Positions 5,106 to 20,021 are shown, numbered from the stretch's first letter. The stretch: DNA of 64,000 nucleotides from Elusimicrobiota bacterium (GCA_016212795.1 JACRDT010000012.1:19975-83974), one strand, 5' to 3'. A program made the numbers and translations. Notes: generated by a model from the letters alone, not told the origin.

Positions 5106-5962
5106 AGATCCAATGCCCCGCCCGCATCAGCCTCTTCCTTGACGCCGCGGCGGACTCGATCCCCGGAGCGGCGCTCTTCGCCAAGATCAACCTCTACGAC
5201 GACCTTGAGCTCGCCGTCTCGCGCTCCGGCGGCGTCGAGCTGGCCGCCGAGTCGCAAGACCCCCTGCCGCAGGGTCCGGGCAACAGCGTCCTGGCGGCGG
5301 TCCGCGCGTTCCGCCGGGCCTTCGGGGTGGGGCTGGGCGTGCGCCTGCGGCTGGTCAAGCGCATCCCCATCGGCGCGGGCTTGGGGGGGGCGGCGTCGGA
5401 CGCGGCCGGCGCTCTCCGGGGGATGGCAAGGCTGTTCGTGCCGTCCCCCGGAAGGGTCGGCGTCAAGCTCATGAAGCTGGCCAAAGAGCTTGGCCGTGAT
5501 GTTCCGTTCTTTCTTCAGCCCTCGCCTGTCTGCGCGGTGCGGGGAAGCCGGCTCCAGCCGGTGGCGGTGACGAGGGTCCTGCCGTACCTGATCGTGGTCT
5601 ACCCGGGCTTCCGGACGGCGGCGAGAGGGGGGCGGACGGTCTTTCCGAGGTCCCCTCGCCCCGTCGAATTGACAAGGCTTTCCCTTCTTGATAAACTGGT
5701 CCGCAGCCTGGAAGAAGGCAGGTCGCTCCCTCGGTGGGAGGAGTTCCTCTTCAACCGTTGGGAAGAGGCCGGTTCTCCCGTCCAGGCGCGGGTGGCCCAG
5801 GTCAGGCGCATCCTGGAGCGGCTGGGCTTGCGCGGCGTGCGGATGGCCGGGTCCGGGACGTCGGTTTTCGGGTTCGTTTCTTCCTTCACCGAAGGGGAGA
5901 GGCTGGTGAAGGTCCTCCGGGAATACCCTTGGAGGGCGTTCCTTACTTGCTGCAACGGTTAG
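5102..5962 (+). CDS. ispE: 4-diphosphocytidyl-2-C-methyl-D-erythritol kinase
   Basis: GHMP-kinase motif KRIPIGAGLGGAASDAAG; GTG start 5102 overlaps upstream stop (GTGA); length 286 aa typical of IspE. The listed 505-aa ORF 4445..5962 is the same frame read through the upstream gene in another frame. Confidence 0.8.
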   Translation: MKIQCPARISLFLDAAADSIPGAALFAKINLYDDLELAVSRSGGVELAAESQDPLPQGPGNSVLAAVRAFRRAFGVGLGVRLRLVKRIPIGAGLGGAASDAAGALRGMARLFVPSPGRVGVKLMKLAKELGRDVPFFLQPSPVCAVRGSRLQPVAVTRVLPYLIVVYPGFRTAARGGRTVFPRSPRPVELTRLSLLDKLVRSLEEGRSLPRWEEFLFNRWEEAGSPVQARVAQVRRILERLGLRGVRMAGSGTSVFGFVSSFTEGERLVKVLREYPWRAFLTCCNG

Positions 5963-5968
5963 ACAACT

Positions 5969-6274
5969 TTGGAAATCACTGAGATCCGCGTGCATCTTCG
6001 CCATGAGGACAAGCTCAAGGCTTTCGCCACCGTCACGTTCGATAATTGCTTCGTCGTGCGCAACATGAAGATCATCGAGGGCAACAAAGGCCTCATCCTA
6101 TGCATGCCTTCCCGCAAGCTGCCGGACGGGACCTACAAGGACATCGCCCATCCGATCAATGTCCCGTTCCGCAAGCTGCTGGAAGACAAGGTGATGTCCT
6201 GCTATCAGGAAGAAATCAAGAAGGCCGGCAAGAACCCCCCGCCGGCCCCCGGTCCGCACGACGACGGGGAATGA
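5969..6274 (+). CDS. spoVG: Septation protein SpoVG
   Basis: MEITEIRVHL..KLKAFATVTFDNCFVVRNMKIIEGNKGLILCMPSRKLPDGTYKDIAHPIN is a near-canonical SpoVG sequence; TTG start 6 nt after ispE stop. Confidence 0.85.
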   Translation: MEITEIRVHLRHEDKLKAFATVTFDNCFVVRNMKIIEGNKGLILCMPSRKLPDGTYKDIAHPINVPFRKLLEDKVMSCYQEEIKKAGKNPPPAPGPHDDGE

Positions 6275-6336
6275 TGGCACAGCGCGTTCCCCGCGGAAGG
6301 AAGGCCTGATGAAACATTATGTCCCCCCCGGACGGA

Positions 6337-6363
6337 GTCGTCCCCCCCGCGGGGGGGGACGAC
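6337..6363 (+). repeat. Perfect 12-bp G/C homopolymer hairpin (GTCGTCCCCCCC-GCG-GGGGGGGACGAC); variant of the C7-GCG-G7 hairpin family
   Basis: 6337-6348 is the exact reverse complement of 6352-6363 with a GCG loop; lies 63 nt after spoVG stop and 7 nt before tRNA-Gln. Confidence 0.85.
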
Positions 6364-6369
6364 GACATC

Positions 6370-6440
6370 TCCCAGGTGGTGAAACGGTATCACAGCGGAC
6401 TTTGAATCCGTTATTCCTGGTTCAAGTCCAGGCCTGGGAA
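6370..6440 (+). tRNA. tRNA-Gln (anticodon TTG)
   Basis: Hand-folded cloverleaf: acceptor TCCCAGG/CCTGGGA (7 bp), D-arm GTGA-AACGGTA-TCAC, anticodon arm GCGGA-CTTTGAA-TCCGT (T33, anticodon TTG, A37), T-arm CCTGG-TTCAAGT-CCAGG, discriminator A; T-arm and variable region closely match E. coli tRNA-Gln. Confidence 0.8.
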
Positions 6441-6454
6441 TACCTGGTGAAGCC

Positions 6455-7861
6455 ATGAACAGGATAGGACGCAAGCCAGCCCGCTCGACGGGCGTGCTCA
6501 TCCTGGCCGCGGGCCAGGGCACCAGGATGGAGTCGGCGTTGCCCAAGGTCCTCCACCCCGTCGGCGGCCGGCCGATGATCTACTACATCCTGAGGGTCGC
6601 CAACGCCCTCAAGCCGGCGGCCATCGGCGTCGTGGTCGGGCACGAGGCCCAGGCCGTCAAGGACGAGGTCCTCCAGATCGCCAAGGACTGCGGCATCGTG
6701 CGCCCCATCCAGTTCATCCAGCAGAAAAAGCCGCTGGGCAGCGGCAACGCGGTGGTGGAGTCGATCCCTTTCCTCAGGAAGGCCACGGGCGCGATGGTGC
6801 TCTGCGGCGACACGCCGCTCCTGACCTACGAGAGCCTGGCGTCGCTCCAGCGCATCCACGAGGAGCAGAAGGCCCAGGCGACGCTCCTGACGGCGCGCCT
6901 CGTCCACCCCAAAGGCTACGGCAGGATCCTCCGCAGCCCCACCGGCGACGTGCTGCGCATCGTCGAGGAGTCGGTCGCGACCCCCAAGGAGGCCGCGATC
7001 AACGAGGTCAACTCGGGGGCCTACTGCTTCGAGGTCGCCGCCCTCCTGGCGGGCCTGGGCGAGATCGGGGCCAAGGGGCCCAAGGCGGAGCATTTCCTGA
7101 CGGACATCCTGGAGCTGGTGCGCAACAAGGGGGGGAGGATCAACGCCCATCTGAGCTCCACCCCGGAGGAGGTCCTGGGCATCAACAACCGCGTCCAGCT
7201 GGCCACCGCCGAGCGCATCATCAACCGGAGGATGCTCGAGAGGCTGATGCTCTCGGGCGTCACCGTCCTCGACCCGTCCTCCACCCACGCGGACGCCGAC
7301 GTCGAGGTGGGGCAGGACTCGGTCATCGAGCCGTTCACCGTCCTGCGGGGCAGGACCAAGATCGGGACCCGCTGCCGCGTCGGGCCGTTCTGCTTCCTGG
7401 AGAACGCCCAGGTCGGCAACGAGTGCGACATCCGCCTCTCGCAGGTGCGGGACTGCCGGATCCTGGAGAAGTGCTCGATCGGGCCGTACAGCAACATCCG
7501 GCCGGAGTGCGTGATCGGGCCCCGCGCCAAGGTCGGCAATTTCTCCGAGGTCAAGGCCTCGCGGGTGGGGTTCGGGTCCAAGGTCCCCCACCTCAGCTAC
7601 ATCGGCGACGCGGAGATCCGCGAGGACGTGAACGTCGGGGCGGGCACCGTGACCTGCAACTACGACGGCAAGCAGAAGCACAAGACGACGATCGAGGCGG
7701 GGGCCTTCATCGGGAGCGGGACCATGCTGGTCGCCCCCGTGCGGGTCGGCAAGAAGGCCGTCACCGGCGCCGGGGCGGTCGTCACCAGGGACGTCGCCGA
7801 CGGGACGACGGTCGTGGGCGTGCCGGCCAGGCCCTTCGCCAGGAATGGCGCGAAGGCATGA
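6455..7861 (+). CDS. glmU: Bifunctional UDP-N-acetylglucosamine pyrophosphorylase / glucosamine-1-phosphate N-acetyltransferase
   Basis: N-terminal LILAAGQGTRMESALPKVLH; C-terminal left-handed beta-helix hexapeptide repeats (VGPFCFLENAQVGNECDIRLSQVRDCRI..); 468 aa. Confidence 0.9.
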   Translation: MNRIGRKPARSTGVLILAAGQGTRMESALPKVLHPVGGRPMIYYILRVANALKPAAIGVVVGHEAQAVKDEVLQIAKDCGIVRPIQFIQQKKPLGSGNAVVESIPFLRKATGAMVLCGDTPLLTYESLASLQRIHEEQKAQATLLTARLVHPKGYGRILRSPTGDVLRIVEESVATPKEAAINEVNSGAYCFEVAALLAGLGEIGAKGPKAEHFLTDILELVRNKGGRINAHLSSTPEEVLGINNRVQLATAERIINRRMLERLMLSGVTVLDPSSTHADADVEVGQDSVIEPFTVLRGRTKIGTRCRVGPFCFLENAQVGNECDIRLSQVRDCRILEKCSIGPYSNIRPECVIGPRAKVGNFSEVKASRVGFGSKVPHLSYIGDAEIREDVNVGAGTVTCNYDGKQKHKTTIEAGAFIGSGTMLVAPVRVGKKAVTGAGAVVTRDVADGTTVVGVPARPFARNGAKA

Positions 7862-7940
7862 AGCTTTGATGCCCAGTCCGGAGCTCCCTGGGAGCCGCGA
7901 AGCGGCCGCCAGGGGATCACGCAGGAAAAGGGGGTCGTGC

Positions 7941-8957
7941 ATGAGTCCTCAGATCGTCTGGCCGGAGACCATGGTGAGCGCGAAGCCCGAGGCGAAGCCC
8001 GGCGCCGCGCCCCAAGTCCGGCTCTTCGGGCAGTTGAAGCTCTTCTCGGGGAACGCCAACCGGCCGTTGTCCGAGGCGATCGCCAAGTACCTCAAGACGG
8101 ACCTGAGCAGCGCGGACGTCGGACGCTTCGCGGACGGCGAGATCAGCGTCCGGATCGAGGAGAACGTCCGGGGCTGCGACTGCTACGTGATCCAGCCGAC
8201 CTGCCGCCCGGCCAACGAGCACTTGATGGAGCTGCTGGTCATGCTCGACGCCCTCCGGCGGGCGTCGGCGGGGCGCATCACCGCGGTCATCCCCTACTTC
8301 GGCTACGCCCGCGCGGACCGCAAGACCGCCCCGAGGATGCCGATCGCCGCCAAGCTCATGGCCAACCTGATCACGACGGCCGGCGCGAACCGGGTCATCA
8401 CCATGGACCTGCACGCGGGCCAGATCCAGGGCTTCTTCGACATCCCGGTGGACCATCTTTACGCGGCGCCCGTCGTCATCGAGTACATGAAGAGGAAGAG
8501 GCTCGTCAACCCCGTGGTCGTGTCGCCCGACGTTGGCGGCGTCGAGCGGGCGCGCGCCTTCGCCAAGAGGCTCACGGCGGACCTGGCGATCATCGACAAG
8601 CGACGGCCGCGGCCCAACGAGGCCTCGGTCTACAACCTCATCGGCGACGTGAAGGGGCGGGTGGCGGTCATCCTCGACGACATCGTGGACACCGGCGGGA
8701 CGCTGACCAAGGTGGCCAGCAAGATCCGCGAGTCCGGCGCCGTCAAGGTGTACGCCGCGTGCGTGCACGGCGTGCTGTCGGGCTGCGCGGCGGACCTGGT
8801 GAAGAAGTCGGATCTCGAGGAGCTGATCCTGACCGACTCCATCCCCGTCTCGCACCTGGCGGGCAGCAAGATCAGGGTGTTGTCCATCGCGCCGCTCATG
8901 GGAGAAGCGATCTCCCGCAATCACCAGGGACAATCCATCAGCGCGCTCTTCGTCTGA
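7941..8957 (+). CDS. prs: Ribose-phosphate pyrophosphokinase
   Basis: KLFSGNANRPLSEAIAKYL, PRPP-binding site VAVILDDIVDTGGTL; ATG 7941 preceded by AAAGGGGG Shine-Dalgarno (alternative in-frame ATG at 7971); upstream part of the listed ORF (from 7845) overlaps glmU and is rejected. Confidence 0.85.
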   Translation: MSPQIVWPETMVSAKPEAKPGAAPQVRLFGQLKLFSGNANRPLSEAIAKYLKTDLSSADVGRFADGEISVRIEENVRGCDCYVIQPTCRPANEHLMELLVMLDALRRASAGRITAVIPYFGYARADRKTAPRMPIAAKLMANLITTAGANRVITMDLHAGQIQGFFDIPVDHLYAAPVVIEYMKRKRLVNPVVVSPDVGGVERARAFAKRLTADLAIIDKRRPRPNEASVYNLIGDVKGRVAVILDDIVDTGGTLTKVASKIRESGAVKVYAACVHGVLSGCAADLVKKSDLEELILTDSIPVSHLAGSKIRVLSIAPLMGEAISRNHQGQSISALFV

Positions 8958-8981
8958 GCGCGGCAATCAAGGGGTAGCGTC

Positions 8982-9794
8982 ATGACAGAGCAGATCCAGA
9001 TCGATGCGAAGATTAGGGAAGGCGGCGGGCGCGACACGCGCAAGGTCCTCTCCGACCTGCGGGCCAAGGCCAGCATCCCGGGCGTCGTCTACGGCGGGAA
9101 GAAGCCGTCCGTGAAGGTGTCGCTGTGCGTCAAGGACCTCATGACGGCCAGGAAGAAGGGGGGCGTCAACGCCATCCTGCGCCTGAAGCTCGGCGCGGAC
9201 GTCGAGACCGTCATCGTCAAGGACATCCAGCGCCACCCGGTCACCGAGGCTCCGATCCACGCCGATTTCCAGCGGATCTCGCTCACCGAGAAGATCGAGG
9301 CCAAGGTGCCGGTCCACATCGTGGGCGAGGCGCCGGGCGTCAAGTCCGAGGGCGGCATCCTGCAGCACGAGCTGCGCGTCATCACGGTGCGGGCCCTGCC
9401 GGCGGCCATCCCGCAGAACATCCCGGTGGACATCTCGAACCTCAAGCTCAACGACCGCTTCCTCGTCAAGGACCTCAAGGTCGGCGAGGGCGTGGAAGTG
9501 CTGCACAACCCGGAGCAGACCCTGGTCCATGTGACCATGGTCAAGGAAGAGGTCATCGAGGTGGCTCCTGTCGCGGGCGCGGAAGGCGTCGTCGCCGAGG
9601 GCGCCGAGCCCGAGGTCATCGCCAAGGGCAAGAAGCCCGTCGAGGGCGAGGAAGGCGAGGAGGCCGCCCCCGCGGAGAAGGGCAAGGCTCCCGCGGCGGC
9701 GGCGGGCAAGGCCCCCGCCGCGCCGGCGGGCAAGGCCCCTGCCGCGCCGGCGGGCAAGGCCCCGGCGGAGAAGCCCGGCAAGCCCGCCAAGTAG
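8982..9794 (+). CDS. rplY: 50S ribosomal protein L25 / general stress protein Ctc with Ala/Pro/Lys-rich C-terminal tail
   Basis: L25/Ctc beta-barrel N-domain (KASIPGVVYGGKKPSVKVSL..); C-terminal low-complexity repeats AGKAPAAPAGKAPAAPAGKAP. Confidence 0.85.
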   Translation: MTEQIQIDAKIREGGGRDTRKVLSDLRAKASIPGVVYGGKKPSVKVSLCVKDLMTARKKGGVNAILRLKLGADVETVIVKDIQRHPVTEAPIHADFQRISLTEKIEAKVPVHIVGEAPGVKSEGGILQHELRVITVRALPAAIPQNIPVDISNLKLNDRFLVKDLKVGEGVEVLHNPEQTLVHVTMVKEEVIEVAPVAGAEGVVAEGAEPEVIAKGKKPVEGEEGEEAAPAEKGKAPAAAAGKAPAAPAGKAPAAPAGKAPAEKPGKPAK

Positions 9795-10465: not shown

Positions 10466-10500
10466 ACTTGGGGGCGAGTGACTTGGAGGCGAGTGATATG
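10457..10500 (+). repeat. Three tandem ~14-15 bp units G(G/A)GGCGAGTGA(C/T)(T/A)TG immediately 5' of, and overlapping, the ATG of the next gene
   Basis: gggcgagtgacttg / ggggcgagtgacttg / gaggcgagtgatATG read directly from the sequence. Confidence 0.8.
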
Positions 10501-10719
10501 AGCCCAGAGGCGAAGGTCATCGTCGGCATCGTCTTCCTGCTCCTGGGCCTGGGCTACACCTACCGGCCCGGCCTCATCCAGCGCATGAACGCTTTCCTGC
10601 GGGAATACGTGCTCAACGACGCCCGCATCGCGTTGGAGCGCAGGAAGTGGGGGATGTTCTTCCTCCTGATGAGCCTTCTGTTCATCTACATGGGCTACAC
10701 GGCCATGGGCCTGAGATGA
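10498..10719 (+). CDS. Small two-TM membrane protein (73 aa), hypothetical
   Basis: MSPEAKVIVGIVFLLLGLGYTY..FFLLMSLLFIYMGYTAMGLR; stop overlaps pmbA start (ATGA), implying translational coupling. Confidence 0.5.
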   Translation: MSPEAKVIVGIVFLLLGLGYTYRPGLIQRMNAFLREYVLNDARIALERRKWGMFFLLMSLLFIYMGYTAMGLR

Positions 10720-12074
10720 AGCGCGCTCTCGTCGACCTCGCCCTCCGCTCCCTGGACTGGATCAAAAAGCAGTCGGCCAGCCTCGAGGCCGAGGTGTTCC
10801 TGGCCTCGGGCGAGGACCGCGGCATCGAGCTGAGGAACGGGGTGCTCGAAAGCCTCCAGAGCGTCAAGTCCGAGGGCGTGGGGTTGAGGGTGCTCGACGG
10901 CGGCAGGGTGGGCTTCGCCTCGGCGGGGGGGATGGACCTGGAGACGGTCCAGGGCCTCTACCGGAAGGTCGCCGAGCTCATGGAGCACCTCGAGCCCGAC
11001 GACAAGATGGGCTTCCCCGCGGCCGCGAAGGACTTTTCCCCGGAGGAGGCGTTCGAGGCTTCCCTGTGGGACGACTCCTTGTTCGGCGGCAGGCTGGAGG
11101 GCTGGCAGCGGCGCCTCGGCGCGGTCCAGGCGCGGGTCATGGGCGGCGACAAGCGCATCCGGACGGTCCTGCGGCTCGGCTACGGCGAGTCGCGCGGCGA
11201 GGTGGTGGTCGCCAACACGAGAGGGGTCGCGGCCTACGAGAGGGGCTCGTCGGCCACGGTGGGGCTTTCGGTGCTCGCGGCGGGCAAGGATGAGGAGCTC
11301 CAGGTCGGGGCCGCCTTCCAGTCCTCCCGGCGCAAAGCCGATCTCGACCTCGACCGGCTCGCCGACGACGGCGCCCGGCGCGCCACCTCGCTCCTCGACG
11401 CCCGCAAGCTGCCGGGCGGCCGCCGGGCGGTGGTCATCGACCCCTGGGTGGCCGGCGAGCTGCTGGACCTGGTGGCGGAGCTCCTCTGCGCCGACTCGGT
11501 CCAGCGGGGAAAATCCATGCTGGCGGGCAGGATCGGCCGCCGGATCGGCTCGGAGCTCGTCACCATCGTCGATGACCCGAAGATCGCCGGCGGCATCGCC
11601 AGCTCCGTCTACGACGACGAGGGCTGCCCGACCGTCAGGAAGACCATGGTCGAGCGGGGCGTCCTGCGGGACTATTTCTACGACACGTACACGGCCAACA
11701 AGGATGGGCGCCCGTCCAACGCCAGCGCCAGCCGCGGCTCCTACAGGGGCATCCCCGGGCCCGCTCCCTCCAACCTCCACATGGCCGCGGGCTCGACTTC
11801 GCGCGAGAAGGTCATCGCGGACACCAACGACGGCATCCTGGTCCTCGACATCCTGGGGATGCACATGGTCGACCCGGTCGCCGGCGAGATCTCGGTCGGG
11901 GTCTCGGGCATCGCCATCGAAGGCGGGCGCTTGACCCACGCCGTCAAAGGTTGCATGATATCGGGCAACATCCTGGAGCTCCTCGGGGGGATCGACATGG
12001 TCGGTGATGACCTGACGTTCTACGGCGCGCTGGGCTCGCCCACGTTCCGGATATCGGAGATGACGGTGGCGTGA
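10716..12074 (+). CDS. pmbA: TldE/PmbA-family metalloprotease component (cytoplasmic, no HExxxH)
   Basis: 452 aa; PmbA/TldD fold signatures (..GYGESRGEVVVANTRGV.., ..GILVLDILGMHMVDPVAGEISVGVSGIAIEGG..); ATG 10716 overlaps upstream stop. Confidence 0.75.
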   Translation: MKRALVDLALRSLDWIKKQSASLEAEVFLASGEDRGIELRNGVLESLQSVKSEGVGLRVLDGGRVGFASAGGMDLETVQGLYRKVAELMEHLEPDDKMGFPAAAKDFSPEEAFEASLWDDSLFGGRLEGWQRRLGAVQARVMGGDKRIRTVLRLGYGESRGEVVVANTRGVAAYERGSSATVGLSVLAAGKDEELQVGAAFQSSRRKADLDLDRLADDGARRATSLLDARKLPGGRRAVVIDPWVAGELLDLVAELLCADSVQRGKSMLAGRIGRRIGSELVTIVDDPKIAGGIASSVYDDEGCPTVRKTMVERGVLRDYFYDTYTANKDGRPSNASASRGSYRGIPGPAPSNLHMAAGSTSREKVIADTNDGILVLDILGMHMVDPVAGEISVGVSGIAIEGGRLTHAVKGCMISGNILELLGGIDMVGDDLTFYGALGSPTFRISEMTVA

Positions 12075-13950: not shown

Positions 13951-15669
13951 CTACTTCGAGAAGTACGGGTGCCCCAGGACGGGGGGCTTGTCGGGCTTCT
14001 CCTCGGATCTCTTGAGCTCCAGCTCGGCCACCAGGACGTCGGGGTGCACGATGCTGGCGGCGACCTCGCCGCGCGCGTACCGGTAGGGGCCGAGCTGGTA
14101 GTAGTTGAAGACGTGCTCGGCGGAGCCTGCCAGCGCGATGTCCCGCAGGGCCCTCAGGGTCACGCTGGTGAACTGGGCGTTGCGCAAGAGCTCTTCCCGG
14201 CCGTCCTTGACGTAGACCTTGTAGACGAGGGCCGGGGCGGCCAGCATGTCGTTCTCCCCGCGTTTGGCTTCGTCGAAGATGCGCCGGATGACGACCCCGT
14301 AGTCGAGGCCGAAGGCCTTGGCGGCCTTGAGGAGCTCCTCTTTGAGCTCGGCGTCGCCGGCGGTCTTGTCGGCCTTGATGACGAGGTTGCCGATGTGGGC
14401 CGTCGGGAACTCCTCGAAGGCGCCCCGGCCGTGGCCGTTGGAGAGATTTCGCTCCTTCACCGGCGAGCGGCCCATGAGGAGGTCCTTGAGCGTCCCGCGC
14501 TCGATGAGGTCCACCTTCCGGGCGCGGATGCCCTCGTCGTCGACCTTGTAGTACCCGGCCAGGGGGGTGCCCCCGAACTCGCGCAAGGTCGGATCGTCGT
14601 AGACGCTCAGGATGGGCGAGACGACCCTCAGGCCCAGGCGGCTCGCGAAGGACCCCGAGTGGAAGTCGGGCTTCATGCGCTCCTCGTCCTCGAGCCACAG
14701 GGAGCGGGGGAAGGACAGGTTGCGCGCCAGCAACTGGTCGAAGAACTGCCCGGCCGCCTGCCCTTGGAGCAGGACGGGGCCCGTGTAGGGGTCCTCCCAG
14801 TTGGGCGCCGCGGCCAGGGCCGTCAGGTCCTTGGCCAGGGCCTGGGCCTCGGCCTCCAGGGCCTCGTAGGGGGGCAGGGACGCGGGGTCCTGGCGGATGA
14901 CGCGGCGGCGGTCGGAGAGCTTCATGCCGTCGGGCGCCTGGGCGGAGGCTTCCATGTAGACCTCGACGTCGTGGCTGTCCTTCACCACGTCCCGGCTCTG
15001 GCTGTCCGTGACGTAGAGGTGCTGCTGGGTCCAGAACAGGCTGACCTCGGACCGCTGGACGACCGGGTAGGCCTTGAAGACGGCCGAGAGCTTGCGGATG
15101 TTCTCCTCCCAGGCCGCCCGGTCGAAGGAGAGCACCGTCGGGTTCGTCAGGGAGGTGTCCGCCGGATCGGCCGACAGGTCCGGGAGCTCCTCCTTGATGA
15201 GCCGCCGCTGCTTGTAGGCCTTCTTCTTCGAGAGGGTCTCGTGGGCTTCCTTGTAGACCCGGTCCGTCGCCGACCAGAGGTCGAAGCGGAGGGCGTCGTA
15301 GTCGTCGTCGACCACGATCGACTCGGTGTCCGGGCCGAACCGCCAGCCGCCGCGCTCGACGTAGTGGGTGTTGTCGAAGGACGCGTTGCCGACGCGCAGG
15401 TCGACCTTGAGCCTGCGCGAGCGCTCGTCCTGGAAGTCCTTGATCGCGCCGAAGGACCCTTCGACCTCGATGCGGCGGACGTCGCGGGCCGTGTAGGACA
15501 CGAAGTAGGGCGTCCCCAGGCCTCCCATATCGAGGCGGGCCATGGTGCGCTTGAGCTCGTCTTTCATGGCTTTGAGCAGCACCGGGGAGCCCGGGTCCAC
15601 GCCCTCGCCGGAAACGCCGGGCGCGGGCAGGGCCAGGAGGCCGGTGAGGAGGAGTGTCATCGCGGTCAT
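13951..15669 (-). CDS. Secreted TldE/PmbA-like protein (no HExxxH) with signal peptide
   Basis: MTAMTLLLTGLLALPAPGVSG signal peptide; TldD/PmbA C-terminal signatures (..SNGHGRGAFEEFPTAHIGNLVIKADK..); GGGGAGG Shine-Dalgarno; 4-nt overlap with upstream tldD-like gene. Confidence 0.7.
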   Translation of the reverse strand: MTAMTLLLTGLLALPAPGVSGEGVDPGSPVLLKAMKDELKRTMARLDMGGLGTPYFVSYTARDVRRIEVEGSFGAIKDFQDERSRRLKVDLRVGNASFDNTHYVERGGWRFGPDTESIVVDDDYDALRFDLWSATDRVYKEAHETLSKKKAYKQRRLIKEELPDLSADPADTSLTNPTVLSFDRAAWEENIRKLSAVFKAYPVVQRSEVSLFWTQQHLYVTDSQSRDVVKDSHDVEVYMEASAQAPDGMKLSDRRRVIRQDPASLPPYEALEAEAQALAKDLTALAAAPNWEDPYTGPVLLQGQAAGQFFDQLLARNLSFPRSLWLEDEERMKPDFHSGSFASRLGLRVVSPILSVYDDPTLREFGGTPLAGYYKVDDEGIRARKVDLIERGTLKDLLMGRSPVKERNLSNGHGRGAFEEFPTAHIGNLVIKADKTAGDAELKEELLKAAKAFGLDYGVVIRRIFDEAKRGENDMLAAPALVYKVYVKDGREELLRNAQFTSVTLRALRDIALAGSAEHVFNYYQLGPYRYARGEVAASIVHPDVLVAELELKRSEEKPDKPPVLGHPYFSK

Positions 15670-17495
15670 GGGAGCCTCCCCATCCTGTCGTGGTGCGGCG
15701 GCGGCAGTATCGGAGGCTTCTCGGACGCCTTGAACTTCTTCTCCACCTCCACCTCGGTGAGCAGGAGGCTCGGGGCGATGGCCGAGACCGGCACGCTGCC
15801 GGACTCGGCGCCGCAGGTGCCGTTGAAGACGTCGTCGTCGTCCGCCGCGGCGACGATCTTCGTGAACGACGCCAGGGGCGTGCCCACGATGTCCACGCCG
15901 CGGACGACCTCGTCGGGCCTGCCGTCCGGGTAGACCCGGTAGACCAGCAGGGGGATGACCTTGAAGGACTGGGTGGCCCCCCGCCCGGTCATCGTGAACC
16001 CTCCCGAGATGTCGTCGAAGACCAGCCCGTAGGGCTTGCGCTGCAGCTTGATCTGGGCGATGAGCATCTCCCGGAGCTTCGCGTAGGGGACGCTGCGCGA
16101 GGCGGTGACGATGGTGTTGCCCATGCGGGCCACGATCGGGTGCCCGGGCTCCCGCCTGCCGTGCCCGTTGGAGGCCGGGAAGCCCTTGATGGGCGAGCGC
16201 GTCATGAGGAAGCCCTTGAGGATGCCGTTCTCGACCAGGGACACCCGCCGCGCGGGGACGCCCTCGTCGTCGAACTTGTAGAAGCCCCGCAGGAACTGGT
16301 CCTTGAAGCGGGGCAGGGTGGCGTCGTCGGCGACGCTGATGAAGTCCGCGGTGATGGGCTGGCCGAGCTTCTTGGTGAAGGTCTGGCCCTCCCGCTCGAG
16401 CTTCTGGCGGTGCCCCTCGACGCGGTGGCCCATGATCTCATGGAAATAGACCGCCGAGGCGCGGGCGCGGAAGATGGCCGGCCCCGTGTAGGGTTCGACG
16501 AGGGGGGCCTTGGTGAGCGCGTCGAGCTCCCTGGCGGAGCGCTCGATGTCCTGGAGGATCATCGCGTCCGCCGGCAGGCCTTCCAGGGCGTCGGAGTCGT
16601 AGCTCTGATGGCGCATGAGGTCCATGCCGTCGGCGGTCCGGGCCCTCAGGGAGTAGCTCAGGCGCGCGTAGCGGTTGCCGGTCACGACCTCGGTCCTCTC
16701 CGTGTTGACGATGTAGCGGTTGATGGCCTCGGCGTCGAGGCTGACGTGGGAGGCGATGATGAAGGGGTACTTCTTGAAGATGCCCGAGAGGTTCTTGAGG
16801 CGCCGGCGCCAGGCCTCCTTGTCGGGGGCGTGCGGGGGGACGGTCTCGTAGGAACGGGCGGGCTGCTGCAGGGAGAAGTCGTCGGACTTGTCCTCCTCCT
16901 CGGCGGTCACGGCCTTGTTCGTGAGGACCTTGGTGTAGTTCTCGCGGGCGGCCTTGAAGACCCTGTCCGTGTGGAGCCAGATGGCCGACCGGATGGCGTC
17001 CTCGTCGTCGGACTCCGGGAGGGAGGAGGAGCCGCTCCCGTCGCGGTCGAACCACCCGCCCATGCCCTTGACCTGGTGGGTGTTGTCGAACCGCCGGTCG
17101 CCGATGCGGGCGTCGATCGTGAGCTGGCGGGAGTGCCGGTCGGATTCGTAGCGGATGGCGCCGAGCAGGGCGCTCAGGTAGTACTCCTTGTCGTCCTCGA
17201 CCTCGTAGGAGAGGAAATAGAGGGGCGGCTTCTCCGCCAGCTGGAGCGGCTCGAAGGAGCGGCCGAGCTCCTTGCGCAGCGCCCGCAGCAGGGCGTCGTC
17301 GTCCGGCGACCGCGCGCCCTCCAGGGGCGCGCCGGGAGCGGAGGGGACGCTCGCGGGCGGCGCTTCCTTGCGCGAGGCCCCCTCCGGCGAGGGGGCGACG
17401 GCCGGCGCCTTCGGCTGCTGGGACGGCGGGCGCTTGCCTGCCGGCGCGGCGCTCAATGACAGGCACAGCGTGGCGATCCAAAACGGACCAATCAT
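15666..17495 (-). CDS. Secreted TldD-like zinc metalloprotease (HExxxH present)
   Basis: Signal peptide MIGPFWIATLCLSLSAAPA after AGGAGG Shine-Dalgarno; HEIMGHRVEGH motif; ..SNGHGRREPGHPIVARMGNTIV.. family signature; tandem with, and overlapping, the tldE-like gene. Confidence 0.7.
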   Translation of the reverse strand: MIGPFWIATLCLSLSAAPAGKRPPSQQPKAPAVAPSPEGASRKEAPPASVPSAPGAPLEGARSPDDDALLRALRKELGRSFEPLQLAEKPPLYFLSYEVEDDKEYYLSALLGAIRYESDRHSRQLTIDARIGDRRFDNTHQVKGMGGWFDRDGSGSSSLPESDDEDAIRSAIWLHTDRVFKAARENYTKVLTNKAVTAEEEDKSDDFSLQQPARSYETVPPHAPDKEAWRRRLKNLSGIFKKYPFIIASHVSLDAEAINRYIVNTERTEVVTGNRYARLSYSLRARTADGMDLMRHQSYDSDALEGLPADAMILQDIERSARELDALTKAPLVEPYTGPAIFRARASAVYFHEIMGHRVEGHRQKLEREGQTFTKKLGQPITADFISVADDATLPRFKDQFLRGFYKFDDEGVPARRVSLVENGILKGFLMTRSPIKGFPASNGHGRREPGHPIVARMGNTIVTASRSVPYAKLREMLIAQIKLQRKPYGLVFDDISGGFTMTGRGATQSFKVIPLLVYRVYPDGRPDEVVRGVDIVGTPLASFTKIVAAADDDDVFNGTCGAESGSVPVSAIAPSLLLTEVEVEKKFKASEKPPILPPPHHDRMGRLP

Positions 17496-17577
17496 GTGTC
17501 CTCCTGCAGACGGTAGATTGTAGTACACACGGCAAGGAGTCCGCTAGTTGACAGTCGGGTGGCATAGGAGGCATCAT

Positions 17578-18729
17578 GTGCGCGCGATGCGAATCCGGTG
17601 GCGCGGCGGGCTGGCGGCGGTCGCGGCGCTGGCGTTGGCCGGGTGCACGTCGCGGGCGGATCTGGCGGAGCGCGCCTACGGGCGGGGCGACTACGCCGAG
17701 GCCATGGGGCTGGCGCGGCCCCTGGGCGAAAAGGGCGACCCCAGGATGCAGAACCTCGTGGGGCTGATGTCCGCCAAGGGGGAGGGCGTGCCCGCCGACC
17801 CGACCCAGGGCGCCGTCTGGTACCGCCGGGCGGCGGAGCAAGGGCACCTCTCGGCCGCGATCAACCTGGGGGTGCTCTACGCGGACGGCCGGGGCGTCAC
17901 CAAGGACGGCGCCGAGGCGCTGAGGTGGCTCCGGGTGGCGGCGGACAAGGGCGAGGAAGTGGCCCAGAAGCTCATCGGGGACCTCTATCTCGACGGCGAT
18001 TGCGTCCCGAGGGACGACGCCGAGGCCGCCCGCTGGTACAAGAAGGCCGTGGACCACGAGTACAGCCCGTTCGACAAGGGCTACGCGCCGGCCCAGCATC
18101 GCCTGGGCCTGCTCTACGAGCGCGGCTGGGGCGTCCCCCGGTCCGGCGCGGAGGCGGCCAAGTGGATGCGCAAGGCCGCGGAGCAGGGCAACGCCGGCGC
18201 GCAGGTCGACCTCGGGCTGCTCTACCAGGGAAAGTCCGGCGTCAAGCGCGACTACGCCGAGGCGGCGCGCTGGTTCGGCAAGGCCGCGCTCGCGGGCGAC
18301 GCCTCCGCGCAGAACTTCCTCGGGGTCATATACGAGAGGGGCAACGGCGTGGCCAAGGACGAGACCGCGGCGTTGGCCTGGTACCTGAAGGCGGCGGACC
18401 AGGACCATCGGCTCGCCCAATACAACGCCGGCGTGCTCTATGACGAGGGGCGCGGCATCCGCCAGGACCTCGGCCAGGCGGTCGCCTGGCTGCGCAAGTC
18501 CGCGGAGGGAGGCGAGACCCGCGCTCAGAACCGCCTCGGGATGTCGTATTTCAAGGGGCGGGGGGTCCCGCGCGACTTGACGCTGGCCTATGTCTGGTGC
18601 TGGCGCGCCGGCAAGAAGGGCCTGACGGTCGGGCTGGAGAACGCGGCGGTCATCAAGAAGGCCATGACGGCCAAGCAGTCGGCCGAGGCCCGGAAGATGA
18701 TCGAGCTCGTCGACAAGAAGCGCCCGTGA
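17578..18729 (+). CDS. Sel1-like repeat (SLR) lipoprotein
   Basis: Lipobox LALAGCTS; about 8 Sel1 repeats (..AEAARWYKKAAEQGHAGAQ..LG.LY..G.GV..D); GTG 17578 is 6 nt after AGGAGG (ATG 17587 is an alternative start). Confidence 0.7.
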   Translation: MRAMRIRWRGGLAAVAALALAGCTSRADLAERAYGRGDYAEAMGLARPLGEKGDPRMQNLVGLMSAKGEGVPADPTQGAVWYRRAAEQGHLSAAINLGVLYADGRGVTKDGAEALRWLRVAADKGEEVAQKLIGDLYLDGDCVPRDDAEAARWYKKAVDHEYSPFDKGYAPAQHRLGLLYERGWGVPRSGAEAAKWMRKAAEQGNAGAQVDLGLLYQGKSGVKRDYAEAARWFGKAALAGDASAQNFLGVIYERGNGVAKDETAALAWYLKAADQDHRLAQYNAGVLYDEGRGIRQDLGQAVAWLRKSAEGGETRAQNRLGMSYFKGRGVPRDLTLAYVWCWRAGKKGLTVGLENAAVIKKAMTAKQSAEARKMIELVDKKRP

Positions 18730-18750: not shown

Positions 18751-19392
18751 CTATTCGAGCGGCACGAGCTTGGCCGGGTCGTAGGCCGGGCCCGCCTTGG
18801 AGAAGACCAGCATGAGGTGGTTGACCCGGGTCTGGTCGTACTGGTCGTGCCAGCGGACGAGGAACTCGGCCTTCGGGATGAACGCGTAGTTGCCCAGGGT
18901 GGACGGGTCCATGAAGTAGAGGTTCCGTTCGTCGTGGCCGATGGCCACGGCGTAGTGCCCGTCGTCCCAAGCCCCGGCATAGTCGACGGCGCCCTCCGCC
19001 CAGGCCTGGAAGGCCACGATGACGGGCTTCCCGGCGTCCAGCGCCGCGGTGAGGTCCTCCAGCGGGGCGTCGAGCGCGGCCTTCGCGTCGATGCCGTGTT
19101 CGCGGGCGAGCTCGACGATCTTCCAGTAGCGCGTGCCCTGCTCCGGGTCGGACCCGAGCTTGCGGGCCAGCTCGTCTTCCCGGATGTCCTCCCCGTAGTA
19201 GCCGAGGATGGATTGGAGCGCGGCGGCGCCGCAGGTGTAGGGCGTGGATTGGCGCACCAAGGGAAGGCGGATGAGGTCCTTGGGGGCATGGGCGGCCGGA
19301 GCGGCGGACGGCCTGGCCGCCGAGCGGGGAGTCCGGGGCGACGCGGCGCAGCCGGCCAAGCCGACGGCGATCCCGAGGATGGCGGCTATCAT
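18751..19392 (-). CDS. C39-like (papain-fold) cysteine peptidase lipoprotein
   Basis: Lipobox GLAGC; catalytic Cys context STPYTCGAAALQSILGYYG and His context GHYAVAIGHD typical of the Peptidase_C39_2 family; start overlaps GNAT stop (ATGA). Confidence 0.6.
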   Translation of the reverse strand: MIAAILGIAVGLAGCAASPRTPRSAARPSAAPAAHAPKDLIRLPLVRQSTPYTCGAAALQSILGYYGEDIREDELARKLGSDPEQGTRYWKIVELAREHGIDAKAALDAPLEDLTAALDAGKPVIVAFQAWAEGAVDYAGAWDDGHYAVAIGHDERNLYFMDPSTLGNYAFIPKAEFLVRWHDQYDQTRVNHLMLVFSKAGPAYDPAKLVPLE

Positions 19393-20021
19393 GCCAGCAG
19401 CAGGCCCATGGCGTGGAGGGCCGCGCCCGCTTTGAGTTCGCCGCGCGCGAGCTCCCGGAAGCCCAGGCTTTCGTAGAACCCGCGGGGACCGTCGCCGCAG
19501 ACGAGGTGGACGCCCGGCACGCGCTCCTCCCTCAAGCGCAGGATGAAGAGGTCCATGAGGCGCCTGCCCACGCCCTTGCCGTGGAACGCGGGGTCCACGT
19601 TGACGTGCAGGTGGGCGGGATAGATGGTCAGGACGGCGCCGAGGAACTTGAGGGCGAGCCGCCGCGCCGGGTCGGCCTCCAGGCCGAGGAATTTCCTGCG
19701 GAAGGCCCGGGCGTCGGGGCTTTCCTTGAAGACGCCGAGCGACTTCCAGAGGAGGGGCCAGCGGTGCAGGAAATGACGGCGCAGGACGAACGGCGCCGTC
19801 GCCGGGCACCCGGTCAGGTAGCCGATGACCTTGCCGTCGTGCCGCGCGGTGTGCGTCCAGTCCGGCGCCCACCTCTCGTAGGGGCCGACCCAGTACTCGG
19901 CGAAGAACCCCCGGCGCTCCTCGGGGATCCCCTGGCCCGACGACGCCGTCCTGCAGCAGATCCCGCGGATCGCTTCCCAGTCCTGGGCCCCGCCCGGCTT
20001 GCCGTAGGCGATGTCCATCAT
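19389..20021 (-). CDS. GNAT-family N-acetyltransferase
   Basis: Acetyl-CoA binding motif HGKGVGRRLM; 210 aa; overlaps both neighbours by 4 nt. Confidence 0.65.
   Translation of the reverse strand: MMDIAYGKPGGAQDWEAIRGICCRTASSGQGIPEERRGFFAEYWVGPYERWAPDWTHTARHDGKVIGYLTGCPATAPFVLRRHFLHRWPLLWKSLGVFKESPDARAFRRKFLGLEADPARRLALKFLGAVLTIYPAHLHVNVDPAFHGKGVGRRLMDLFILRLREERVPGVHLVCGDGPRGFYESLGFRELARGELKAGAALHAMGLLLA

Follow-up and report, generated by a model that had tools for sequence, protein, structure and literature searches.

A gene pair in an Elusimicrobiota genome predicted to encode an exported TldD/TldE-like metallopeptidase with a catalytically inactive paralogue as partner

Introduction

The TldD/TldE family is nearly universal and, to our knowledge, all of its biochemistry and all of its solved structures come from cytoplasmic members. 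A stretch of 64,000 nucleotides (nt) from an Elusimicrobiota bacterium (GCA_016212795.1, JACRDT010000012.1:19975-83974; this whole stretch is referred to below as the window) carries on its minus strand two adjoining genes of this family, here called A and B, each of which begins with a hydrophobic presequence. The locus raises the question of whether the pair encodes an exported relative of the cytoplasmic enzyme, as a preliminary description of the window had proposed, and from where the second gene, which lacks the zinc-binding motif, was derived. The answer that we favor, with a probability of roughly 0.62, is that A and B each supply one subunit of an exported metallopeptidase with the TldD/TldE fold, which would leave the cytoplasm by the Sec pathway, assemble as a 1:1 shell and degrade unfolded peptides, and in which B arose by a duplication of its own.

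Organization of the gene pair

The features of the operon, with the basis of each in brackets, are:

15666..17495, minus strand: gene A, TldD-like catalytic subunit with a putative export signal, 609 amino acid residues (open reading frame, ORF)
13951..15669, minus strand: gene B, catalytically dead paralogue of A with a putative export signal, 572 amino acid residues (ORF)
15666..15669, minus strand: ATGA overlap of the B start codon and the A stop codon (sequence)
17500..17505, minus strand: Shine-Dalgarno sequence AGGAGG of A, 4 nt 5′ of the A ATG (read from the sequence)
15675..15681, minus strand: Shine-Dalgarno sequence GGGGAGG of B, 5 nt 5′ of the B ATG and within the 3′ end of A (sequence)

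The ATG of B (15669..15667) shares bases with the TGA of A (15668..15666), and A and B constitute a two-gene operon that is translationally coupled via this ATGA. The two adjoining minus-strand genes, their 4-nt overlap and the strong Shine-Dalgarno sequence in front of each are as the preliminary description gave them. The G+C content of the window is approximately 69%. Proteins with 100% identity to A and B in an Elusimicrobiota metagenome-assembled genome (MAG) are named "peptidase U62" and "hypothetical protein," respectively, by NCBI.

The choice of start codons is narrow. No in-frame ATG, GTG or TTG lies 5′ of position 15669 for B, and its next ATG downstream is codon 4. The start candidates for A are restricted to GTG 17528 and ATG 17495, the next being a TTG that falls within the hydrophobic stretch and has no ribosome-binding site. 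Since no alternative start avoids them, the hydrophobic N-termini of both A and B are necessarily translated.

Active site and fold

Gene A carries the motif HEIMGHRVEGH, which had already been recognized on the upstream gene. It pairs with HEAVGHGLEGD (His262, Glu263, His267, and Glu270) of E. coli TldD, while the sequence GTCGAES surrounding Cys561 pairs with GVCGKEG (Cys454). The two elements are located at:

16410..16442, minus strand: zinc-binding/catalytic motif HEIMGHRVEGH of A, residues 352-362 (alignment with E. coli TldD)
15813..15815, minus strand: codon of Cys561 of A, the predicted third zinc ligand (alignment and invariance)

In E. coli TldD the metal ligands and catalytic base are His262, Glu263, His267, and Cys454 (PMC5810440). 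The HExxxH motif is present in all 120 of the best A homologues; H352, E353, G356, H357, and E360, the last being the retained equivalent of Glu270, are invariant among 50 A-type sequences, and the cysteine is invariant in the A family. By these alignments A possesses the full TldD zinc site, that is, HExxxH plus Cys.

At the same positions B reads DQLLAR where A has HEIMGH, and LG where A has CG, all three ligands having been lost. Across B-type proteins the position of the cysteine ligand is occupied by Leu or Val, and HExxxH is found at the motif position in none of the 120 best B homologues. Two members of this set do contain such a pattern: in P0159, a fusion protein, it belongs to the A half, and in P0184 it is a chance match elsewhere, at residue 488. 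Because Asp-Gln…Arg replaces His-Glu…His and Leu replaces Cys, B is regarded as a dead copy.

Membership of the family is evident from the C-terminal domain (PF19289), which matches A with 98.9 bits (E = 3e-28) and B with 63.7 bits (E = 1.8e-17) against a gathering cut-off of 22. With Pfam E-values of 3e-28 for A, 2e-17 for B and 7e-71 for a third family member in the window (a PmbA-like gene, considered below), chance can be discounted as the source of the matches. The N-terminal (PF01523) and central (PF19290) domain models match neither A nor B at E ≤ 0.01. Protein A also falls far below the NCBIfam TldD equivalogs, scoring 64.3 against a cut-off of 513 for the bacterial model (NF008006) and 77.8 against 635 for the archaeal one (NF040952); B is likewise far under the TldD/PmbA equivalog cut-offs, and has no match to the PmbA model (NF008268). 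None of the curated subfamily models in Pfam and NCBIfam fits A or B as such.

Both proteins were modeled with AlphaFold, yielding a mean predicted local distance difference test score (pLDDT) of 87.4 and a predicted template modeling score (pTM) of 0.85 for A, and values of 93.9 and 0.92 for B. When these predicted models were compared with the PDB using Foldseek, the best match of A was E. coli TldD (5njf_A; E = 1.2e-30, TM 0.76, 535 columns) and that of B was also E. coli TldD (5nj5_A; E = 7.6e-28, TM 0.73, 554 columns), with the TldE chains ranking behind TldD for B at E of approximately 1e-23. The significant PDB matches of both models are restricted to 16 chains of TldD, TldE, and PmbA. 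Since each Foldseek alignment spans about 540 columns, the N-terminal half is predicted to have the family fold even though it is invisible to Pfam.

Presequences and export

The preliminary description credited both genes with cleavable signal peptides. Hydrophobic N-terminal presequences are indeed found on both, and we infer that they would be cleaved by signal peptidase I. The relevant segments are:

17448..17495, minus strand: presequence of A, residues 1-16, MIGPFWIATLCLSLSA, putative Sec signal peptide (hydrophobic segment and small-x-small site)
15607..15669, minus strand: presequence of B, residues 1-21, MTAMTLLLTGLLALPAPGVSG, putative Sec signal peptide (hydrophobic segment, start constraint, homologues)
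17310..17447, minus strand: Pro/Ala-rich disordered linker of A, residues 17-62 (12 Pro and 11 Ala in 46 residues)

Inspection and a hydropathy window only were used to define the parts of these segments. In A, the hydrophobic core FWIATLCLSLSA is followed by L-S-A ahead of the putative cleavage point (MIGPFWIATLCLSLSA / APAGK); in B, the core LLLTGLLALPA is followed by V-S-G (MTAMTLLLTGLLALPAPGVSG / EG). This layout of a core plus small residues recurs across both families. Among the best 120 homologues of each protein, 112 for A and 107 for B have a hydrophobic N-terminal segment, and most of these presequences are by eye classic Sec signals, with Lys/Arg, 10-15 hydrophobic residues, and Ala-x-Ala (e.g., MNRRSLAVLTLILIPLFLAGPSSA and MKKTIITALILTAALAAARG). 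Sec-like B presequences are also obtained when they are re-derived from the DNA of 66 loci. In the homologues and the AlphaFold models the first conserved helix of both families begins directly past the presequence, the confidence of the models being low over the presequences themselves (a short helix of low pLDDT at residues 1-16 of A, and a pLDDT of about 50 in B). No comparable N-terminal extension is present in E. coli TldD, E. coli TldE, or the PmbA-like protein of the window. The comparison of homologues is strong, and export of both chains appears well supported by it; the periplasm would presumably be the default destination in a diderm organism.

The 46-residue linker of A lies between its presequence and the first conserved helix and has a pLDDT of <50 across residues 17-55. 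It is absent from most homologues, a comparable insert being seen only in P0002, the closest relative.

Two other types of signal were considered and rejected for the window proteins. The presequences contain no Arg and therefore are not Tat signals, and neither protein possesses a lipobox, which argues against lipoprotein status. TldD/PmbA pairs with Tat signals occur in the Bacteroidota and are not used as evidence here.

Distribution, pairing and natural fusions

Genomes, one per species, were scanned using an alignment of A proteins alone as the query, because a mixed alignment of A and B proteins contained no conserved stretch. No fewer than 597 species genomes were found to encode an A-type protein; they span some ten phyla, which include the Elusimicrobiota, Acidobacteriota, Planctomycetota, Verrucomicrobiota, Myxococcota, and Calditrichota, and further the Aminicenantes, Eisenbacteria, Melainabacteria/Cyanobacteria, and Chloroflexota. 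In a representative library of 1.84 billion proteins, A retrieves 1198 clusters (50% identity) at E ≤ 1e-30, 3172 at E ≤ 1e-10 and 5977 at E ≤ 1e-3. The localization, which had been called unusual, is so only by comparison with the characterized E. coli enzyme, since the exported clade is itself very common.

Eighty loci from the scan were kept for comparison. In 75 of these the gene with the HE motif is followed on the same strand by the motif-less paralogue; among the other five, A and B are fused in one, two are cut at the end of a contig, and two are without B. The B start and A stop overlap by exactly 4 nt in 48 of the 66 loci that could be analyzed, and these are drawn from many phyla. 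Separate look-ups showed the same gene layout in a Terriglobia contig, with the 4-nt overlap, and in a Phycisphaerae contig, with a gap of 78 nt. An unusual arrangement was observed in L032, from an Oculatellaceae (cyanobacterial) MAG, at approximately 5875..9765: in addition to a normal A-B pair on the plus strand, there are long ORFs on the minus strand that strongly resemble A and B and overlap the B gene. They could represent another copy in inverted orientation, or an artefact of the assembly.

Clustering of the flanking ORFs of the 80 loci revealed no gene that is conserved beside the pair across phyla. Synteny is lineage-specific only, as in 15 loci of the Bryobacteraceae type. The neighbors in the window (glmU, prs, L25, and pth; TPR and Sel1 repeat proteins; a C39-like lipoprotein; and a GNAT gene) give no hint of a substrate. 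The pair is a self-contained module.

Single-chain fusions, in the order A to B, account for 54 of the 150 best cluster representatives; these 54 are proteins of ≥1000 residues, most having approximately 1100. Each contains one HExxGH, which lies in its N-terminal half, and most begin with a signal peptide. Further examples are P0087, P0159, and P0174 from the homologue searches and a 1186-residue ORF, L083, from the genome scan. At the junction the tail of A (..KPPLLPPP..) passes through a short linker into the first conserved helix of B, and the presequence of B is gone, a deletion which fits this segment being an export signal only. The halves of fusion P0241 (1119 residues) adjoin the window A and B, respectively, in the tree discussed below, which suggests that fusions arose more than once. 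Of the fusions among the representatives P0241-P0390, which are otherwise of about 1100 residues, one has some 200 extra residues. The 1338-residue fusion P0366 is annotated as Alistipes sp. (Bacteroidota), and fusions therefore seem to include this phylum.

Both subunits end in a conserved KPPxL..P tail:

15669..15740, minus strand: C-terminal tail of A, residues ~586-609 (P595, L597, and P600 invariant)
13954..14007, minus strand: C-terminal tail of B, residues ~555-572 (P568 invariant)

The tail is of low confidence in the monomer models, and in the fusions it runs straight into B; it could be a contact with the partner or a sorting signal. Protein B is conserved over its full length, and 26 of its positions do not vary across phyla.

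E. coli TldD is active only with TldE, and the two form a hollow shell with one active site, inside which unfolded peptides are cleaved (PMC5810440). From the conserved 4-nt overlap and the 54 fusion clusters we infer that A and B would likewise form a 1:1 shell. The proposal of an exported heterodimer made of a catalytic and a non-catalytic chain is thus well supported comparatively, by conserved pairing, overlap, presequences, and fusions.

Origin of the inactive subunit

Whether B is a TldE in the strict sense is a separate question. Proteins A and B share 32% identity over 570 residues (E = 6e-78). In phmmer comparisons, A proteins of different phyla score 565-607 bits against each other, B proteins about 340 bits, and A against B 250-300 bits. 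By comparison, the score of A with E. coli TldD is 52-65 bits; B reaches no more than 15 bits with E. coli TldD or TldE (≤14 with TldE alone) and ≤19 bits with the set of E. coli TldE and the PmbA-like protein of the window; and E. coli TldD and TldE score 52 bits against one another. Near its C-terminus, around the position of Cys454, B retains the TldD-type "clamp" insertion (LGPYRYARGEVAASIVHP) at TldD length, a segment missing from both E. coli TldE and the PmbA-like protein in the alignment. Searches with a profile of the B family are equivocal, with E = 1.3e-9 for E. coli TldE and 6.4e-7 for TldD.

A phylogeny against the canonical proteins, as suggested in the preliminary description, was constructed by neighbor joining with 100 bootstraps from A-type and B-type proteins, the halves of fusions, and three canonical sequences (E. 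coli TldD, E. coli TldE, and the PmbA-like protein of the window). The exported proteins separate from the canonical ones in 100/100 bootstraps, and A-type proteins, including the N-terminal halves of fusions, are monophyletic in 100/100. With only these three canonical sequences in a neighbor-joining tree, A groups with E. coli TldD in 0/100 and B groups with TldE in 0/100.

Its close paralogy to A, the retained clamp insertion and the position in the tree indicate that B is not an orthologue of TldE. The earlier assignment of the downstream gene to the TldE/PmbA type consequently stands as regards the lost motif and ligands and does not stand as regards descent. The exported lineage probably split off from canonical TldD-like proteins and then duplicated, one copy losing the metal site; the inactive partner would in that case be the product of a separate duplication within the exported lineage and probably not a descendant of TldE.

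Proposed function and alternative explanations

The mechanism that we envisage begins with A and B crossing via Sec in an unfolded state and with the removal of both presequences by signal peptidase I. The two chains would then assemble 1:1 in the periplasm as a hollow, pseudo-symmetric shell like that of E. coli TldD/E, metal being loaded there and the single zinc site of A facing the cavity. A narrow entrance would admit only unfolded peptides, and cleavage would be largely independent of sequence. In this scheme B would serve as a pseudo-enzyme partner that was duplicated inside the exported lineage. The most likely role may be the breakdown of oligopeptides in the periplasm, be they imported nutrient peptides or the debris of exported proteins, a role comparable to that of caged periplasmic peptidases such as pitrilysin. 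A broader claim is more tentative, and we would put it at somewhat less than even odds: that the pair represents a second, independent invention of the active-plus-dead shell, repeatedly fused, which serves as a general caged periplasmic oligopeptidase in many non-proteobacterial diderm phyla. The phyla in question may be the Elusimicrobiota, Acidobacteriota, Planctomycetota, Verrucomicrobiota, Myxococcota, and Bacteroidota.

Several observations weigh against this account. The n-regions of the window A and B presequences lack Lys and Arg, which is atypical for Sec signals and unlike nearly all homologues, where such residues are present (e.g., MNRRSLAVLTLIL and MKKTIITALIL). The hydropathy heuristic is permissive, passing 20 of the 38 genes in the window; since it is too permissive alone, the argument for export rests on the position and conservation of the presequences, the start constraints and the fusions. 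Monophyly of B is recovered in only 4/100 bootstraps of the neighbor-joining tree with its three canonical sequences. Two loci, L018 (on a contig labeled uncultured Clostridia) and L049 (a Bryobacteraceae MAG), have A without a B detectable by tblastn within 2-4 kb downstream. Finally, in E. coli TldD the clamp is tethered by a salt bridge from Lys456 to Glu270 and Asp272 (PMC5810440), and the Asp272-Lys456 pair is not kept in A, which has His (Gln in some homologues) and Ala at these positions.

Among the alternatives, two are unlikely to about the same degree. The first holds that the proteins are exported without being soluble in the periplasm, owing to an uncleaved signal anchor, a lipid anchor, or release to the cell surface or medium. 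Apart from the uncharged n-regions and a cleavage deduced from the sequence, this idea could draw on the KPPxL..P tail, which on both subunits could sort or anchor, on the tether-like Pro/Ala-rich linker of A, and on a few homologues with a lipobox-like sequence before Cys, namely P0011 (VVAC) and the B gene of L054 (VSAC). The cores are, however, only 10-16 residues long and are followed by small-x-small, which is typical of a cleaved signal and too short for a stable membrane helix; the window proteins have no lipobox, and Pfam shows no known secretion-system domain.

The second supposes a dedicated enzyme, which would either process one exported substrate (the leader of a natural product or toxin) or act not as a peptidase at all, being an amidohydrolase of a periplasmic small molecule or the cell wall. 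In lincosamide biosynthesis, TldD/E-like pairs serve as N-deacetylases. E. coli TldD/E processes microcin B17 and CcdA (PMC5810440), homologues recur in gene clusters for ribosomal-peptide natural products, and the divergence of A at the Asp272 and Lys456 positions could be read in the same sense. Against this, no gene for a precursor peptide, modification enzyme, or transporter is conserved beside the pair in the 80 loci from many phyla, the window neighbors are housekeeping genes together with TPR and Sel1 repeat proteins, and a distribution over at least 597 species fits a general function better.

It is considerably less probable that A functions alone, for example as a homodimer, with B in an unrelated role, for instance in binding or inhibition, or as a duplicate in decay. 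An active homodimeric TldD has been reported for Sulfolobus, a claim that PMC5810440 takes up and disputes; B evolves more rapidly than A (340 versus about 580 bits across phyla), and there are the two loci in which A has no B nearby. Protein B is nevertheless conserved from end to end with its 26 invariant positions, gives the model of pLDDT 93.9, is coupled to A in most genomes and is fused to it in 54 independent cluster representatives. The idea of a decaying duplicate fails because B is conserved, coupled, and fused.

Least probable of all is that A and B are ordinary cytoplasmic tldD and tldE genes with misassigned starts, a possibility raised in the preliminary description which would suit a superfamily whose characterized members have no signal peptide: it is essentially excluded by the start-codon scan, which leaves B no other usable start and A, downstream of ATG 17495, only a TTG that lacks a ribosome-binding site and falls within its hydrophobic segment, while the presequences are conserved in both families and lost only where B is fused behind A, the exported clade separates from the canonical proteins in 100/100 bootstraps, and the scores lie far under the TldD and PmbA equivalog cut-offs.

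Neighboring genes

A third family member without a signal peptide had also been noted in the window, and was found at that location:

10716..12074, plus strand: canonical gene of the PmbA/TldE type, lacking a presequence and separate from the exported pair (matches to all three Pfam domains)

Its product matches PF19289 with 238.3 bits (E = 7e-71), as well as PF01523 and PF19290, and its best solved relative is T. maritima PmbA (1vl4; E = 4e-38). It contains neither HExxxH nor a presequence, scores 107 against a cut-off of 438 for the NCBIfam TldD/PmbA equivalog, and shows only remote similarity to A and B (E of about 1e-5). No catalytic TldD partner for it is encoded within the window, and one is presumably located elsewhere in the genome. 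The end of an 83-residue ORF at 10468..10719 on the plus strand, with two predicted membrane helices and no Pfam match, shares an ATGA with the start of the PmbA-like gene, which suggests that a small membrane protein is translationally coupled to a cytoplasmic protein of the PmbA/TldE type.

On the far side of gene A, a protein with eight Sel1 repeats and the lipobox LALAGC is encoded at 17587..18729 on the plus strand, divergent from A. The sole sigma-70-like match in the region (TTGACA-18-CATCAT, 17548..17577) lies just 5′ of this gene, which is not conserved beside the pair in the other phyla examined. Beyond it, at 18751..19392 and 19389..20021 on the minus strand, lie two genes that share an ATGA, the end of a GNAT acetyltransferase gene overlapping the start of a gene for a C39-like cysteine peptidase. 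The N-terminus of the peptidase is of the lipoprotein type (MIAAILGIAVGLAGC). It is odd to find these two genes coupled, near the TldD-like ones.

Significance

A large exported branch, which comprises no fewer than 597 species and some 1200 clusters (50% identity), would mean that caged peptidases of this design also work beyond the cytoplasm. A dead partner was apparently derived here for a second time, from a catalytic copy, which provides a natural replicate for asking why this fold needs an inactive partner, and the natural fusions are ready single-chain constructs for structural and biochemical work. The pair thereby offers tractable handles on what TldD/E enzymes are for. Genes of the A and B types ought to be counted as periplasmic or extracellular peptidases of environmental phyla and not as "modulators of DNA gyrase." If the pair is truly a general periplasmic oligopeptidase, it would fill a role for which no enzyme has been described in those diderm phyla.

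Comparison with known systems

Database labels for A- and B-type proteins are generic ("metallopeptidase TldD-related protein," "peptidase U62," and "predicted Zn-dependent protease"). A full-text literature search returned incidental mentions only and no account of an exported TldD/E clade, an absence that is no proof. While the fold and chemistry are familiar, the localization, the arrangement as an operon, the separate derivation of the inactive partner, and the frequency of single-chain forms are apparently undescribed, as far as could be found.

Pitrilysin (PtrA) is a periplasmic zinc peptidase which encloses small unfolded peptides in a chamber, is composed of a single chain and has an inverted motif, HxxEH. 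It is a functional analogue only of A and B, the fold and motif being unrelated, and no homology is claimed.

TldD/E-like proteases also occur in ribosomal-peptide natural-product clusters, for example those of biphenomycin and ammosamide. These are paired TldD-like and TldE-like genes whose products act together on peptides, as is proposed for A and B; they are cytoplasmic and reside within biosynthetic clusters, whereas A and B have no conserved cluster genes and bear export signals on both chains.

The canonical PmbA/TldE homodimers of T. maritima (1VL4), P. aeruginosa (3QTD), and B. thetaiotaomicron (1VPB) have the same fold and are non-catalytic, and the third gene of the window is of their type. 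Protein B resembles them in having no metal ligands and differs in its presequence and TldD-type insertion.

The closest comparison is with E. coli TldD/TldE (PDB 5NJ5; PF01523/PF19290/PF19289; formerly MEROPS U62), whose two-domain fold is predicted by the models for both subunits. Like E. coli TldD, A has HExxxH and the equivalents of Glu270 and Cys454, and in both systems one catalytic subunit is accompanied by one without any ligand. In contrast to the E. coli pair, both A and B have export presequences, and their N-terminal halves are too diverged for the Pfam models of domains 1 and 2; A lacks the Asp272-Lys456 pair of TldD, and B, unlike TldE, is a close paralogue of the active subunit (32% identity) with a TldD-type clamp insertion. 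The E. coli tldD and tldE genes are far apart, whereas A and B adjoin with a 4-nt overlap; they further add a conserved KPPxL..P tail, and are frequently joined as a single chain.

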